A DNA stretch of 64,000 bases from Octopus vulgaris (lineage: Eukaryota). A model generated the notes under the pieces. The model was not told the origin of the DNA. It did no database searches and saw only the letters and a program-made list of their open reading frames with translations. The stretch is from contig OX597817.1 in the NCBI GenBank assembly GCA_951406725.2, forward strand, positions 38,378,001 through 38,442,000, given 5' to 3'. The translations under genes and the position numbers were made by a program. Of the stretch, positions 3,160-64,000 are shown one piece after another. Numbering within the stretch: the first letter of the stretch is position 1; every line of letters begins with the position of its first letter.

Positions 3160-3936
3160 GAACGAATATTTGCATATTTATTCTTAATAAATATGCAGGT
3201 TCAGACGCAAAATATGCTCAACGTCACAGGAGAATAACTTCTTTTTTACGACGACTGTATGTTTAACACACTTAACTCAAAGGTGCACAGGATTCTGGGA
3301 CATCAGTGTTTCGATGTGTTGTGTCTCGTCAGCTTTAAGCATATGAACCATTGAGCCTAAACCTAGCAGCTGGCTTTGATTATACTTTCAGCGAACAAAC
3401 TGCTTTTTATGATCGGTGCTTCTATCGACCAACCGATAAAAAAAAATCGCTATTTGCATCGTGTACAGCGGTCGAGACACCTTTGTACCAGAATCCCTTG
3501 CACCAATGAATCGAGAGCGTTGAACAGATTGTTGTAAAAGAAAGAAGTTATTCTCTCGTGACATACACTACAGCCACCAGCGTATTTTGCATCTGATCTT
3601 GACTCGACGTATTAAGAATAAATATGCAAATATTCGTTCCAGATCTCGCTCATCACGGTGCAAATAACGCTTTTTTTTTTTATCAGATGACAGATATAAG
3701 CACCGATCAGCAAACAATTTGTTCGCTGAAAGCATAAACAAAGCCAGCGGCTCGGTTTAGCCTCAATGGTTCGGGTGCTGCTGACTGACTAGACACAGCA
3801 TGTTGAAATACCGGTGTCCCAGAATTCGATGTGAGTTAATCGCTCTCTCGTCATTAAAGAAAAGTTATTCTCCTAAATAACATCAATAAACATATTTTGC
3901 ATCTGAAGCTGCCTAGACGTAATAAGAATAAATATG
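3160..3936. mobile_element. Inverted plus tandem pseudo-LTR-like repeat carrying degenerate type I hammerhead ribozymes
   Basis: 3160-3189 is the exact reverse complement of 3610-3639, and 3290-3462 is inverted at 3654-3826. Minus core: CTGACGA gacacaacacatc GAAA cactgatG TC (3332 to 3299). Plus core: ctgactga...GAAA taccggtG TC (3781-3818). Confidence 0.7.
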
Positions 3937-3989
3937 TATATACTCATGCGAAATCTTTTTTTTTTTTTTTTACAAAATAAGTGTTGAGT

Positions 3990-4410
3990 AATAATACTGC
4001 AGAGTAGTGGGTAGTATTATAATGTGGTGGGTAGTGTTGTTGTGTGATGGATAATGTTGCAACGTGGTAGGCAATGTTACGATAACGTTTACTGTGTGGT
4101 GAGGAGTATTGCAGTGTAGAGTGTGGCGGGTGATGTTGAAGAGGGAAGAGGTGCGATATTGTAGTGTGAAAGGTATTATCATAGTGTGGTGGAAAATGTT
4201 ATAGTGTGGTGGAAACTGTTATGATGTCGTGGGTAGTGCTGCAATGTGGGAGTAGTGTTGCAGTGTGTCAGGTTGTATTTTGGTGTAGTGGGTAGTATTA
4301 TAGTCAGGTAGGTAATGTTGTAATATAGTAGATAGTGTTGTAATGTCGTGTGAGTGTTGCTGTTTAGTGTATAGTGTGACAGTGTAGTGTGTGAGTGTAT
4401 GTGTGTGTGA
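3990..4410. repeat. Degenerate GT-rich (gtagtgt-like) low-complexity tract
   Basis: Repetitive gtagtgtggt-like units. Confidence 0.75.
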
Positions 4411-4880
4411 ACAAGTGGCCAGAACAAAATAGAGAGAGAATTAAGTTTCACGACTAAGAGAAAGTTTGTCCAAGAAAACAATAAGCGAGCAATCAGTTCT
4501 TTAATAAAAGGAAGTATATTAAAGTATAGGAGCGTGGACGTGCTACTGACAATAAGTTTATAGTGTGGGTGGGTGTAAGTGAGTGTGTACGCATGTGTGC
4601 ATGTGTATATGTACATAGGTGTGTGTTTGCGTGTGGTGTTGCTGCATGTAAGCACGTGGGTGTGTAGTTGTGTGTGTGTATATAACTGAAGGCGAATCGA
4701 TTGTTTAGCTTATGTGGGTGTATGTATATATATATATATACTATTCTAAAGCGGAAAAGAAATTGTTTACGTTGTAACTGAATAGGTGGATTGACAATTA
4801 TACATAGTTAACTCACACTGGTTATAAGTGACTCCACAAACCAGATTTCCATCATCATTATCATCATTATTATTATTATT

Positions 4881-6990: not shown

Positions 6991-7078
6991 CACAAACAAA
7001 TGCGCGCGCGCACACACACATACATACATAATACTTACATACACAGATACACACACACATATATATATAGAGAGAGAG

Positions 7079-7128
<50 letters not shown>

Positions 7129-7130
<2 letters not shown>

Positions 7131-7443
7131 ATGGAGTTAAACCCAGGTTTTATTCAAATCTTTATACTTCCGACATATGTTTCGAAGAAAACTAGTATTA
7201 TTCCAGAGGGAATAAAATGAGATAAAACAATGCGATCTTCTCATCAGAGAGAGAAAAAGAGAAACAACATCAGTAAACCATTCGGTTAAAATGGCTTCCT
7301 GATGTTGCTTCTTTTTTTTCCCTTGATGAGAAGATCGCATTGTTTTACATCATTTTATTCCCTCTGGAATAATACCAATGTTTTCTTCGAAACATATGTC
7401 GGTAGTATAAAGAGTTGAATAACACCTGCGTTTAACTCCATTT
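7129..7443. mobile_element. ~315-bp fold-back element with a hammerhead ribozyme in each arm (PLE pLTR-derived)
   Basis: Arms 7129-7282 and 7290-7443 are reverse complements around a ~7-nt loop, with hammerhead cores on both strands. Confidence 0.85.
7167..7252 (-). ncRNA. Type I hammerhead ribozyme (core intact, stem I weak)
   Basis: Minus strand: ctct CTGATGA gaaga...tcttc GAAA catatG TC ggaag. Stem II is gaaga/tcttc, stem III is the palindrome CATATG and the cleavage triplet is GUC. Confidence 0.75.
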
Positions 7444-8711
7444 CTTTATTTATCTGTTATACAAAATCATTTCACTAAACCCTGGAATTTCTATTTTTTA
7501 AGTTGGCTGTTACATCTTTGGTACTTATGCGAATTTTTTGCTACACTGGTAACTATTTATTTATTTTTTACCTGTTATTTGTACACATTGAAAAAATACA
7601 CATACATTAATATATATTTATATATATATATATATATATATATAGATTTGTTGTATAAGGCCGGAACAATGCATTGTTCTCACTGCCGGTATCCACGTAG
7701 GATTTGAATTCAGAACGAAAAGAAAGAACTTATGCAAATACCATAAAGCATCTTGTCCGACGCTCTAATAACTCTGCCAAGCCCCCCTCCTGAACTGGTA
7801 CTTCATTTATCGAGCACGTAAGAATGATAGGCAAAACTTAACTCGGTACGATTTGAACACAGCACAGACATCCGGAACGAATACCGCAATAACATTCTTT
7901 CCGATGCTCTATCGACTCCCGAATTTGCCACCTCAAACACCTATTGTTAAAGCGTTAATAAAAAGAAGTCTATATATTTGTGAATATCTAATAGAACGAC
8001 AAAAATATATTCAAAATTAAGAATTATAATACCACAAGACACCAAGTCTGCTAGAATTAACATTTCAAACTCACCCAGATCTTCCCCTACTGACTTAAGA
8101 CAGAAAGAAACCGTGGATCCTTGTCTTTAGTAAGACAGAGTAGACTTGGCTTGAATAGCTACTCATGAGTCTGTTCTGTCAGAGCCGAAAACAACAACAG
8201 CGAGAAGCATTTTACAGGGCTAAAATTTCTCTGTCGTGAAGTTGATGCAATGATTTATCCAGTACAATAAGAAACATTTACGAGAGATAGCGAGAAAGAG
8301 AGGGAGAGCTGTTTTAAGTGCTAACAAGAGGTTTGAGAACAGTGAGCAGTTGCCCTGGCGGTCCGCGGAGCTAAGAGCCCAATGGTAATTAATCTATGTA
8401 TGCTGTGGTTTACTGTTAATAAATAAATACTATGGGTTCCAGTGCATTGTTTTGCTCGGGAACCTATACACTCACGTACAGAAACACAGAAACCTACACA
8501 TGTATGCATGTATAGGTACATGTATATACGCATGTATGTAGATATGTAAGTATACTAAGTATATACATGCGCGCACACACATACACACCCACATATTGCT
8601 ATTTATATGTATGTGCGCACACGCATCGAGACAGTGTACGTGTTTGTATTATGTATGCACGTCCGTGAAAATGTATTTGTGTGTGTGCGTGTGCAAGTGC
8701 GTGCCAGCGAG

Positions 8712-28154: not shown

Positions 28155-28780
28155 TGTAGTAGTAGTAGTAGTAGTAGTTGTTGTTGTTGTTGCTGTACAG
28201 CATTGAACAATGCCCTTACTGTTTAGTATATGTACTCAGTAAAACTATGCAACGCTGTTTATGTAATTCGATATGAGTATATCTTGAGAGAGAGAGAGGA
28301 AGAAAAAGAAAGACAGCGAGAGAGAGGAGAGTGTGTATGAGGGAGAGAGAGAGTGTGTGTGTATGTGCGTGTGTATGTATGTGTGTGTGTGTGCATGTGT
28401 GTGTTGCGCGTGAGCGTGAGTGTATGTATGTGTGGGTGTAACAATACGTATATCAATGAATCTGTCACACAATCATACACAAACATACACATTGCGCACA
28501 CACAATCACACACATACATACACATACGCACACACACATACACACACACACCTTAATGCGTATTAAGGTACCATACAAGCTTGTTTTATACTGGAAAACC
28601 TGAGAGACTACTATGACATATTATATATATATATGTATATATATACAAAACACAAGAAACACTAAACTACCGGTAGCTATCTGAAGCTGTATAAAGGAAA
28701 ATTTCTGCTGTGGAAACTCCGGTTTCGAACAAACAGAAAATCCCTAAGGTTTAATTTTTGTTGTAGATTATAAATAAAAT

Positions 28781-29209
28781 AAGTGAAGAATGGAATTTAT
28801 GGTATCACGTTTATTCCATAGTTTACAATTGTTTCAACAACTTGAAGTGACCAATTATACATCATGTCCACAGAATTGATGGTAACGACGATTTAGTCAC
28901 GCATTATAATGTAATACATATTACATTACTGCAGCGACGGCAGTCTCTTCAGAACCGATTGAATAAAATAGTACAAAAATTATTTGGTTGGTCGCTTAGA
29001 TAAGTAACTAAATGATTCCCTATATTACTTTATTCAATCGGTTCTGAAGAAACAACTGTCGCCGGTATTATGTAATAAATATTACATAAATGTGTGTCTA
29101 AAACGTTGTTGTCATCATTGTCTATAGACATGATGTGTTATTGGGCACTTCAAGTTGTTGAAACAATTGTAAACCATGGAATAAACGTTATACCATATAC
29201 TCCACACTT
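28781..29209. mobile_element. ~430-bp fold-back element with hammerhead ribozymes in both arms
   Basis: Arms are reverse complements around a ~17-nt loop near 29000, e.g. gtttacaattgtttcaacaacttgaagtg / cacttcaagttgttgaaacaattgtaaac. Confidence 0.88.
29040..29175 (+). ncRNA. Type I hammerhead ribozyme with a ~109-nt stem II domain
   Basis: ggtt CTGAAGA aacaact...agttgtt GAAA caattG TA aacc. Stem I is ggtt/aacc, stem II has 7 perfect bp, stem III is the palindrome CAATTG and the site is GUA. AATAAA follows at 29180. Confidence 0.75.
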
Positions 29210-30239
29210 TTTTTTATTTTATGTATATGTGTAGTTAGTATAAATGAATGACTATGCAATATGTCCACAACGGTCCTCATGTCTTTTTCTTATTACTGTA
29301 TCTATTTTAGAGAAGTCTTTATTCTTGAGATTACCTTCTCTACGCGTGGAAATGATTTCAATAAATCAACAATTTCTCTTTGATGGTATTGTTCATGTCA
29401 TTGTTGTTGGTGGGAGTGTTATTGAGTTATTTCTCTTAGCTCTTTTCCGTTTACATTATTCAAATTACTTTAGATGCAGCACGGATTTTTGTCAGTGAAC
29501 AGATCGCGGTCTTAAAGCGACGAAAATATTCAGACAAATTAAACTTAAATGTTGAAGTGAATCGAACGGCTTTTGTGTGTTTCTTAAATGGCTTACAAAC
29601 ACCTTCCACCCTGCAAATTACTTTAGGTAATTCGTCTTCATTATATAATCTCTCTTTCCTTCTATCTCTCTCATTCTCTCATTCTCTCTTTCTCTCTCCT
29701 CCTCTCTCTCTCTCTCTCTCTCTCCTTCTTTTTCTTTCTCTCTTTCTATTAATATGAGGAAGTCTCTTAACAGGCTATTTCACAATTTGTTGATCGTTCC
29801 TCGGAGAAGACGTACTTGGCTTCTTTCCGCAATCATTAGCAGCGGTCAGCGTCTCTGTAAAGCAGTCAGTAATTCAGATAGCACGTTAGAGGATAGTCTA
29901 ATTTGAATACCTCTGCTTTTTCACGACTGTAATACTCTTTGTGATCACACATTGTAACTTGAAGTTTCATATCCTGAAGTAACATTCGAAGAATCGTCAA
30001 ATGAGCAAACACAACCCGCCCCAAGTGAATGTCTTGACATTTCGTCATGATTTTAGTTCTAGATATGAAACCACTTTATGTATAATCCCTAAGTGTGCTA
30101 TTATCATTATATGACCATGTATCTGTATGTGTTCACACACGCGCATGCCTACGTATACATATGTTGTGTTATGTTGGGTGAGTGGGTGGGTGGGTGTGCG
30201 CACGCGCGTGGTTGCTGTACATGAATCTGAGGAATAAAG

Positions 30240-62061: not shown

Positions 62062-62100
62062 GCACATATATATATATATATATATATATTCTTTTCTTTT

Positions 62101-62494
62101 TTCTTTTACTTGTTTCAGTCATTTGACTGTGGCCATGCTGGAGCACCGCCTTTAATCGAGCAACTCGACCCCGGGACTTATTCTTTTGTAAGCCCAGTAC
62201 TTATTCTATCGGTCACTTTTGCCGAACTGCTAGGTAACAGGGACATAAACACACCAGCATCGGTTGTCAAGCAATGCTAGGAGGACAAACACAGACACAA
62301 TCACACACACGCATATTTATATATATACATATATACGACGGGCTTCTTTCAGTTTTCGTCTACCAAATCCACTCACAAGGCTTTGGTCGGCCCGAGGCTA
62401 TAGTAGAAGACACTTGCCCAAGGTGCCATGCAGTGGGACTGAACCCGGAAACATGTGGTTGGTAAACAAGCTACCTACCACACAGCCACTCCTG
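62101..62494 (-). mobile_element. SINE family B, full length and young
   Basis: Close reverse-complement match to 33830-34185, including the tRNA-like head gcaggagtggctgtgtggta. Confidence 0.92.
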
Positions 62495-62836
62495 CATATA
62501 TATATATATATATATGCGCATATGAACCCATGCTGAGCAGCAAAATTTTAGCTCATCTAAATGTGATGCTTAATTACTTAGTGTGCAGCAGAACGACTCG
62601 CCTGGTAGTCAGAGTCATGAATTAAATACTCGAGAAGAACGAACCTCAAATATACCACATAAGGAAAATAGGGAATATTTAACAGCTACCAATAGTCTGG
62701 TATCTATTCAACTCTCAGGCGCCGTTGAACTAATCATACATACATACATAAATACATACATGCATACATACATACATACATACATACATACATACATACA
62801 TACATACATACATACATTGCAAACATATATATATGA

Positions 62837-62893
<57 letters not shown>

Positions 62894-62906
62894 AAATATA
62901 TATATA

Positions 62907-63013
<107 letters not shown>

Positions 63014-63160
63014 AAAAGCAATAAAGATTCAAGTTAATTTAAATGAATTTACTTGAATATGGTACCTAACTTAGATGCACCAAAAAAAACTATACTGATT
63101 TAACAATACAGTAATGTGGGGTGATTATAAGCGAGAATGAAGCAACAAGAATGGATAGGT

Positions 63161-63251
63161 TTTTAGTACAATCGTTTCATACAAGGACAGGTTTTATTAA
63201 AAGCTGCAAAAATTACAACATATAAACGTGTCCCGTACTCATCAGCTAAAA
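63161..63251 (-). ncRNA. Type I hammerhead ribozyme (minus polarity)
   Basis: Mirror image of 63459-63549. Confidence 0.85.
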
Positions 63252-63458
63252 TACATGTGAGTTCTCTAGACATCCTAGTGGTTGAGGCTATACTCATGAA
63301 GTAATGTAGATAATTAAGTAACATAAACAGATTTCAGTTCATTAAAGTTCTTTAAAGAACTTTAATGAACTTTTGAAATCTGTTTATGTTACTTAATTAT
63401 CTACATTACTTCATGAGTATAGCCTCAACCACTAGGATGTCTAGAGAACTCACATGTA

Positions 63459-63549
63459 TTTTAGCTGATGAGTACGGGACACGTTTATATGCTGTAATTT
63501 TTGCAGCTTTTAATAAAACCTGTCCTTGTATGAAACGATTGTACTAAAA
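63459..63549 (+). ncRNA. Type I hammerhead ribozyme with a 60-nt extended stem II
   Basis: ttttag CTGATGA gtacgggaca...gctgtaa-ttt-ttgcagc...tgtccttgtat GAAA cgattG TA ctaaaa. Stem I has 6 perfect bp, the core is complete and cleavage is predicted after A63543. Confidence 0.85.
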
Positions 63550-63579
63550 ACCTATCCATTCTTGTTGCTTCATTCTCGC

Positions 63580-63625
<46 letters not shown>

Positions 63626-63637
63626 TACAAATATATT

Positions 63638-63676
<39 letters not shown>

Positions 63677-63709
63677 TATATACACTCTTTCACTCTTTTA
63701 ATCTTTTAC

Positions 63710-64000
63710 TTTGATAAGGTACAAATTGGCATGATAAGTCATAAGGTGCCAAACCTTGGCATTGCTGGTAAACTGGGAGAATGGTTGCATGACTTACTTA
63801 AAAACAGAAGTCAGGTGGTTGCAGCCAATGGCGCCTTTTCTAAGGAAACTGTAATCGTGAGTGGTGTCCCTCAGGGAACTGTTCTGGGGCCATTACTGTT
63901 CATAATAGCCCTCTTAGACATGCCTACAGTCACTCGGACAGCCGCTGTCACTAGCTATGCCGATGACACAAAATTATCACAGGCAGTAAAAAATCAAGAG
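63710..64000 (+). mobile_element. CR1-group LINE RT core, 5'-truncated, running off the window
   Basis: Open frame FDKV...LGIAGKLGEWLHDLLKNRSQVV...SGVPQGTVLGPLLFII...SYADDTKL. Confidence 0.93.

Follow-up and report, generated by a model that had tools for sequence, protein, structure and literature searches.

Penelope-like elements (PLEs) of the Hydra clade are diagnosed by an RWK motif, a change of DKG to DKT, a CxCx5C linker, and CxxC and CxH motifs flanking conserved E and N residues; shortness (<3 kb) is a tendency of the clade and not a diagnostic trait (PMC8557442). One of these elements, Penelope-13_HM, includes a 5'-truncated inverted copy with an identical hammerhead on each strand (PMC8557442). 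Metazoan PLEs carry dimer-type hammerheads of type I in the pseudo-LTR, with a 6-bp stem I and a palindromic loop III; they cleave weakly in vitro, as dimers, and in Schistosoma they occur in pairs, one on each strand, at distances of 100-700 bp (Cervera and De la Pena 2014, PMC4209133). For Poseidon from Anolis, both strands of an AT-rich target were nicked and extended in vitro, two internal starts of reverse transcription (RT) bound the tail, the protein is predicted to be a dimer, and the hammerhead needs the protein for activity, while insertion in vitro can proceed without the hammerhead (Frangieh et al. 2024, PMC11167929). The literature already describes truncated copies in inverted arrangement, tails, insertion into (TA)n, and hammerheads of the dimer type on the two strands.

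The window analyzed here is a stretch of 64,000 nt of Octopus vulgaris DNA, G000:C4:38,378,001-38,442,000. It contains a lopsided insertion spanning 63012-63580, in which the left arm bears a 119-nt tail and the right arm has none. The arms form an inverted repeat (63131-63579) with zero spacer and an axis between 63353 and 63354. Positions in the parent element refer to one natural copy (L041:4601-9268, 4,668 nt), in which the ATG is at 60, the stop at 2918, the hammerhead core at 4435, the predicted cut after 4513, the tail-less end at 4549, and the tail end at 4668. The features of the locus are as follows.

62848..63011, no strand: left flank, (TA)n target repeat, from the sequence; (TA)n follows the tail end in most family copies
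63012..63130, minus strand: 119-nt tail, reference 4550-4668
63131..63353, minus strand: tailed arm, the end of the element 3' UTR (pseudo-LTR), 5'-truncated at reference 4319
63161..63251, minus strand: type I hammerhead motif, copy 1, predicted cut after 63167
63349..63358, no strand: junction, 10-bp palindrome TCTTTAAAGA, reference 4319-4328
63354..63579, plus strand: tail-less arm, the same 3' UTR end inverted, ending at reference 4549
63459..63549, plus strand: type I hammerhead motif, copy 2, predicted cut after A63543
63580, plus strand: extra G, where the element has no G (184 tail-less ends with G vs 44 with the templated T)
63581..63683, no strand: right flank, (TA)n target repeat, from the sequence

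The two arms thus correspond to reference 4319-4668 (minus strand) and 4319-4549 (plus strand), and the junction palindrome TCTTTAAAGA, common to both, pre-existed in the parent element. The spacer-less inverted repeat at 63131-63579 had been the core of the original prediction and was confirmed; the same bounds fail for the insertion, as they leave out the tail at 63012-63130. The repeat had also been called a perfect 449-bp palindrome, which it is not: relative to the tail-less arm, the tailed arm (63131..63353) has one substitution (the mismatch 63218/63492) and a deletion of 3 nt near 63336. Cruciform formation at the palindrome is plausible. A search of the 2.8-Gb genome with the right arm gave 1,818 candidates, of which 40 were scored and 43 places listed, the 43rd being a partial match; the same 224 nt was found with 98-100% identity in at least 42 places among the matches listed. 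Recurrence of the 224-nt arm at this identity at 42 of 43 listed places means that the palindrome is not a product of chance. The expectation of a recent insertion from a young family also held, with about 540 exact end matches and the best copies 98-100% identical. The insertion at this locus is an ordinary, dead, young one.

Other repeats were seen in the window. A dispersed repeat at 62090-62495, similar to a SINE-like element common in octopus, ends in (TA)n. The sequence at 63700-64000, which we take to be a LINE reverse transcriptase gene fragment (motifs GVPQG and YADD), showed no relation to the PLE protein in tblastn. At 28769-29227 lies an older palindrome built in the same way; its arms are 78% alike, hammerhead cores occur at +29044 and -28952, stem II measures roughly 100 nt, and the loop is CAAUUG. 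A decayed inverted pair of a different family at about 7050-7400 has a core at -7247, a 55-nt stem II, and the loop CAUAUG.

The palindrome proved to be the 5'-truncated 3' end of a 4.67-kb PLE, a parent that the original prediction had left unnamed, and we are highly confident that the insertion is of the Hydra type. Flanking stretches of family copies contain a single 954-aa ORF encoding a reverse transcriptase and a GIY-YIG endonuclease, with the motifs RWK at 37, DKT at 124, YRDD at 355, and VIY..YLG at 834, together with CKCRIKSKC (CxCx5C linker) at 815, CQLC (CxxC) at 912, and CVH (CxH) at 942. The GIY-YIG core has a single Cys, and CCHH is absent; the N-terminal GxKF/Y is also absent, the sole GxKY match being at 555 in the Asn-rich linker. 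Because the protein has every Hydra diagnostic given in PMC8557442, the element was assigned to the Hydra clade, by motifs. Pfam matches were weak and below the cut-off (RVT_1, E 0.0022; GIY-YIG, E 0.024); a Pfam search with the whole 954-aa protein gave zero matches at E 0.1, and a PDB sequence search gave 0 matches at E 1. The element shares with Hydra-clade PLEs, including Hydra-1_Obim and Penelope-13_HM, the C-terminal GIY-YIG, the protein motifs, the lack of CCHH, the (TA)n target, and a 3' hammerhead (PMC8557442). Tail ends chosen without regard to TA mostly abut (TA)n, which is the Hydra-clade target. With 4,668 nt the element exceeds the short length (under 3 kb) described for the clade, and its 4.67 kb, 954 aa, 30% Asn linker, and 1.6-kb 3' UTR contrast with the 1.1-3.0 kb of the Hydra-clade elements listed (PMC8557442). 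The linker (P0001 residues 480-810, 30% N) lies between reverse transcriptase and endonuclease and resembles the N-rich inserts of rotifer Penelope ORFs (PMC3846280).

The family also shows the traits of EN+ PLEs, namely a pseudo-LTR from partial tandems, an inverted 5'-truncated copy, and a tail on one end only. In a search with the C-terminal 154 aa, 9 of 150 scored matches lay in stop-free frames of at least 947 codons, the start being checked in part. L131 and L173 are tandem copies in which the tail continues for 11 more bases into the ORF leader; the RNA template is therefore a read-through transcript, and both 3' ends are internal to it. An upstream pseudo-LTR occurred at two places only in the sample, L131/L032 and L173. 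The former (G000:C2:37,617,240-37,628,000) is a double element of two near full-length copies head to head with central pseudo-LTRs, one ORF being open over 954 aa and the other split. A 344-bp tandem array with units >99% alike (L033:1-4073; G000:C1:224,760,000) adjoins a 5.2-kb palindromic insertion of the same family. We conclude that this is a new Hydra-type PLE family.

We then examined the ends of the insertions across the family. Exact end patterns matched genome-wide at 184 tail-less ends with G, 44 with T, and 310 tailed ends, with 0 matches for the controls. The first 100 of the 184 G-type tail-less ends were fetched: 78 were joined to an inverted arm, 21 were solo or complex, and 1 was unparsed. 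The partner arm was tailed in all 78 inverted loci and tail-less in none, whereas random pairing from the end counts would give about 42% tail-less partners. When 30 loci were chosen by the tailed end instead, 17 had a tail-less partner within 1.5 kb, 2 had a tailed partner (one being the internal junction of the double element), and 11 had none in range. Each of 99 parsed tail-less ends was followed by 3-51 TA units, the ends having been preselected on two units. Target-site duplications were sought at 76 loci, which gave only short or low-complexity shared words, as (TA)n prevents resolution.

Both arms of an insertion come from one source molecule. Subfamily markers agreed between the arms in 20/20 cases at 4195 (7 derived), 25/26 at 4256, and 67/67 at 4510. 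Rare substitutions common to both arms numbered 30 in 17.0 kb, compared with 29 arm-specific ones over both arms (8 noisy or divergent loci of 70 were dropped), and 23 of 36 rare shared variants checked occur in at most two arms of the sample. At the locus in the window, an A-to-G variant in stem II has 3 matches genome-wide, two of which are these arms. G-type and T-type ends both occur in both subfamilies, with only 3 T-type arms scorable at both markers, which argues that insertion itself generates the tail-less end. G followed by (TA)n is also the reading at most tail ends and at ends of other families. Candidates for the source of the extra G are non-templated addition and a two-base RT slip; an origin in the target was rejected by reasoning, as the G faces outward at both ends.

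In LINE-1 twin priming, two target-primed cDNAs on one RNA are joined through microhomology to give an inversion; the position of the second start varies, and there is no overlap between the two copied parts. The Octopus PLE differs in having two fixed starts and in copying one stretch into both arms. Our main reading, to which we give a probability of about 0.58, is that two target-primed RT starts on one RNA produced a 5'-truncated head-to-head insertion in (TA)n with two probably masked dimer-type hammerheads. The RT/GIY-YIG protein would nick both (TA)n strands, and cDNA synthesis on a single read-through RNA would be primed at two places, by one nick at the tail end 4668 and by the other at the internal position 4549. 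Both cDNAs would stall near 4319, and the two antisense cDNA ends would anneal via the 10-bp palindrome there, each being extended on the other. Microhomology of at least 2 nt was present at 28 of 45 insert-free junctions (62%, vs 19% by chance), and 7 of 177 mapped 5' ends lay at reference 4315-4324. The junction microhomology, the pairing of a tailed with a tail-less arm, the agreement between arms, and the near-symmetry described below all fit two RT starts on one RNA. A 5'-end hot spot at reference 3934-3942 (L041 ~8534-8542) accounted for 10 of 177 ends in solo and inverted copies; a long pyrimidine tract with CAG at its end lies directly upstream, and the hot spot may reflect transcription initiation, a splice acceptor region, or stopping of the RT.

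The lengths and junctions of the arms bear on a rival explanation, in which a single cDNA folds back at a short palindrome, primes itself, and is copied into a hairpin whose asymmetry arises by later deletions of the centre. Palindromes can lose their unstable centre by deletion. We regard self-priming as less likely than twin priming. The truncation points lay within 20 nt of each other in 34 of 78 loci (shuffled mean 3.4, maximum 11 in 5,000), and junctions occurred at natural mini-palindromes such as reference 4319-4328 and 4322-4335, an excess and a placement that also suit fold-back. Inserts were found at 33 of 78 junctions, and 12 of 16 inserts of at least 8 nt matched nearby sequence (chance about 40%; one insert was wrongly delimited), again in favor of fold-back. 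Near-symmetry fell with arm length, from 13 of 15 under 200 nt to 1 of 22 over 1 kb; this loss in long insertions suits a symmetric birth followed by centre deletions and counts against twin priming. The rare variants shared by both arms do so as well, as independent cDNAs would not share RT errors: twin priming then needs many low-output source copies or later conversion between the arms, whereas such locus-private variants are explained directly if one arm was copied from the other. Moreover, the anole study reports no strand difference in the start site, such as the strict rule of one tailed and one tail-less arm would call for (PMC11167929). Self-priming on an antisense template has been proposed for rotifer PLEs (PMC3846280).

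Twin priming was nevertheless favored over fold-back on three grounds. First, the longer arm may be either one: the tail-less arm exceeds its partner by more than 100 nt in 19 of 78 loci (up to 3.7 kb), and the tailed arm does so in 19 of 78; plain fold-back of one cDNA gives no such pattern, and each of the 19 loci with the longer tail-less arm would need a large one-sided deletion. Second, solo tail-less insertions exist, so 4549 can act as a start, while fold-back requires a fixed stop at this position, which also ends the solo insertions. Third, another PLE, that of the anole, extends both strands from two internal starts (PMC11167929).

The strict pairing of one tailed with one tail-less arm would also follow automatically if the template were the read-through RNA of an existing large inverted copy, with the RT jumping across the RNA hairpin and the ends and extra G being inherited. 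Large inverted copies do exist (L128 with 2.6-kb arms; L131). We consider this improbable, given that G and T ends occur in both subfamilies and that no arm-specific difference recurs except changes in homopolymer length. Long double-stranded RNA is expected to be edited, and the rare shared substitutions contain no A-to-G excess (5 A>G, 8 T>C), which further weighs against an inverted template. On the same count, A-to-I editing was rejected as the source of the shared variants.

A fold-back artefact of sequencing or assembly was considered as well. Among the contigs listed from public runs, none spans the centre of this locus with its flanks, the two differences between its arms may be errors, and runs of 1-nt deletions in some arms elsewhere resemble read errors. 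An artefact is nonetheless very improbable: each arm stops at its own fixed position in the element, the two flanks do not mirror each other, and 78 of 100 loci are built in the same way. Contigs from four public runs have loose (TA)n ends at the position of the tail-less end, and in two of these runs other fold-back joints of the same PLE family are seen as well. The stretch was present in 20 of 24 public runs listed, none of them recorded as RNA and several guessed to be RNA.

The full hammerhead core is present on both strands, with CUGAUGA at +63465 and -63245, GAAAC, and GUA, as had been predicted. In copy 2 (plus strand), stem I is formed by 63459-63464 and 63544-63549, the core occupies 63465-63471, and stem II 63472-63531; GAAAC (63532-63536), the palindromic loop GAUU (63537-63540), and GUA (63541-63543) follow. 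With CUGANGA, GAAA, NUH, and stems I-III, the motif has the elements that define a type I hammerhead. Its 6-bp stem I and 60-nt stem II rod were likewise as proposed, the rod having a minimum free energy (MFE) of -18.0 kcal/mol (z -4.2; 0 of 200 shuffles as good). Pairing of stem III only as a dimer also found support: the word ACGAUUGU forms no fold alone and pairs 8/8 with a second copy (-5.8 kcal/mol). Such a core on both strands could suggest an independent palindromic RNA element, retrozyme- or viroid-like, and tandem hammerhead repeats of other families exist in the same genome. This reading is largely refuted, with a very small residual chance: both arms are pieces of a PLE 3' end, their lengths vary continuously over 78 loci, and the RNA would be a single closed hairpin. 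Non-LTR retrozymes are defined by head-to-tail tandems with a hammerhead per unit (bioRxiv 10.64898/2026.07.22.740005), whereas the locus is a single head-to-head pair of PLE 3'-end arms.

The locus had been singled out as the best candidate for an active ribozyme, and this claim was not supported. The monomer hammerhead fold is predicted to make up about 0.3% of the ensemble of the isolated 111-nt motif, and the read-through transcript of the locus is predicted to form a single hairpin of about -400 kcal/mol with a stem I probability near 0. Folding models thus make activity in place unlikely, because this hairpin buries the ribozyme, and the two ribozymes cannot form a dimer within one transcript, since they sit on opposite strands. 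Both motifs are predicted by these models to cut only as dimers and are probably masked here. In the parent element, the palindromic stem III would bring two cores together, and these would cleave tandem or read-through transcripts at a site that precedes the ORF start by about 210 nt. Insertion ends carried no cleavage footprint, with 2 of 177 mapped 5' ends within 4512-4516, and Rfam at the gathering threshold gave 0 matches in the 64-kb window. A 36-nt solo insertion between two (TA)n runs (L321; G000:C29:13,081,401) extends from the predicted cleavage site to the tail-less end; its start at the cut site is a single case, explicable by TA microhomology.

Comparison of related motifs adds to the dimer reading. 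In successive subfamilies the stem III words are ACAAUUGU, ACGAUCGU, and ACGAUUGU. Among 30 loci of various families, the loop was perfectly palindromic in 20, had wobble pairs in 9, and was unpaired in 1; with these words and loops, the dimer reading gains covariation. Stem I reached at least 5 bp in only 14 of these loci, and sequence similar to the PLE protein lay near 2, so that a link of other hammerhead families to PLEs is only partly shown. Across 40 loci of older subfamilies (80-96% protein identity at the endonuclease end, the C-terminal 154 aa), nearly all motif holders keep the core, stem I, and the 60-nt stem II, with loop words AAUU or GAUU, and GAUC in a sister subfamily. The self-duplex energies for AAUU, GAUU, and GAUC are -6.4, -5.8, and -10.0 kcal/mol. 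The strict pattern was matched by 130 of 148 motifs in young copies, most others being the GAUC loop variant or indels.

When the named structure was laid on 14 related motifs, 91% of cells were paired, vs 30-47% in slid controls, and 11 of 26 pairs showed two-sided change; the shuffle used for covariation takes no account of relatedness, and one of the aligned sequences supplied the structure. An unconstrained consensus fold preferred competing local hairpins, the apical helix of stem II being the one part recovered. At the base of stem II the motif has G-U in place of the G10.1-C11.1 pair, as has Penelope-13_HM (PMC8557442); the relatives have G-U in 8 of 14 and G-C in 6 of 14. The long stem II rod appears to be maintained by selection, and we would guess that it is a protein-binding arm.

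The genome was scanned with the pattern CTGANGAG-Nx-GAAAC-NNNN-GTH, whose counts are pattern matches, that is, putative ribozymes.

x 5-24: 1,623 matches, control 170
x 25-54: 12,216 matches, control 231
x 55-61: 7,103 matches, control 91
x 62-91: 5,449 matches, control 207

Cores with 26-92 nt between the catalytic boxes therefore gave 24,768 matches (control 529) vs 1,623 short ones. One match is nearly the published Hydra-1_oBim hammerhead. Retrozyme-like head-to-tail repeats with a hammerhead per unit were seen at G000:C1:180,105,947-180,107,390 (353-bp repeats, short stem II) and at C1:16,526,555-16,528,759 (535-bp repeats, long stem II). A metagenome scan for relatives gave 429 pattern stretches, none of them confirmed.

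The Octopus motif has the topology, pseudo-LTR position, 6-bp stem I, and palindromic loop III of metazoan PLE hammerheads, and it differs from them in its three-helix rod, helix II being 4-8 bp there (PMC4209133). It has 60 nt between the core boxes vs about 25 nt or less in the Hydra motifs listed, and the Hydra-1_Obim hammerhead is different and short (PMC8557442). The nearest long-stem-II precedent listed is PLE-X1_sMoe of a spike moss (about 53 nt, marked as deviating), and 'long helix II' in viral hammerheads means 6 bp. The 119-nt tail compares with 30-40 nt described for PLEs. Poseidon is alike in its AT-rich target and in two internal RT starts bounding the tail (PMC11167929); it belongs to a different clade, and its hammerhead overlaps the ORF start, as opposed to about 210 nt upstream in the Octopus tandem copies. 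Searches of the open literature, including part of the supplements, gave no account of hammerheads with a long stem II as the prevailing class, of a PLE tail of 119 nt, or of twin priming as the reading of the pairing of tailed with tail-less arms in PLEs. Such motifs may already be listed in other supplements or in subscription papers.

The origin of PLE inverted ends and tails has been described as unresolved (PMC8557442, PMC11167929). The Octopus family offers a large set of young insertions that strictly follow one rule, a tailed arm joined to a tail-less one from the same source molecule, and its open-frame copies make twin priming and fold-back separable in vitro. A combined proposal can be put forward only tentatively: fixed two-site twin priming, with one RNA and two starts 119 nt apart, one per nicked strand, would be readable from hundreds of near-identical insertions, and about 25,000 dimer-type hammerheads would carry stem II rods of 26-92 nt that serve as protein-binding arms of a protein-assisted ribozyme. 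Because long-stem-II pattern matches outnumber short ones by about 15 to 1, descriptors limited to short stems would badly undercount ribozymes in such genomes. If true, a dominant class of hammerheads has been missed by standard short-stem descriptors and Rfam. The hammerhead architecture is thus a variant that is abundant in the genome, and the insertion pattern makes the PLE mechanism testable.
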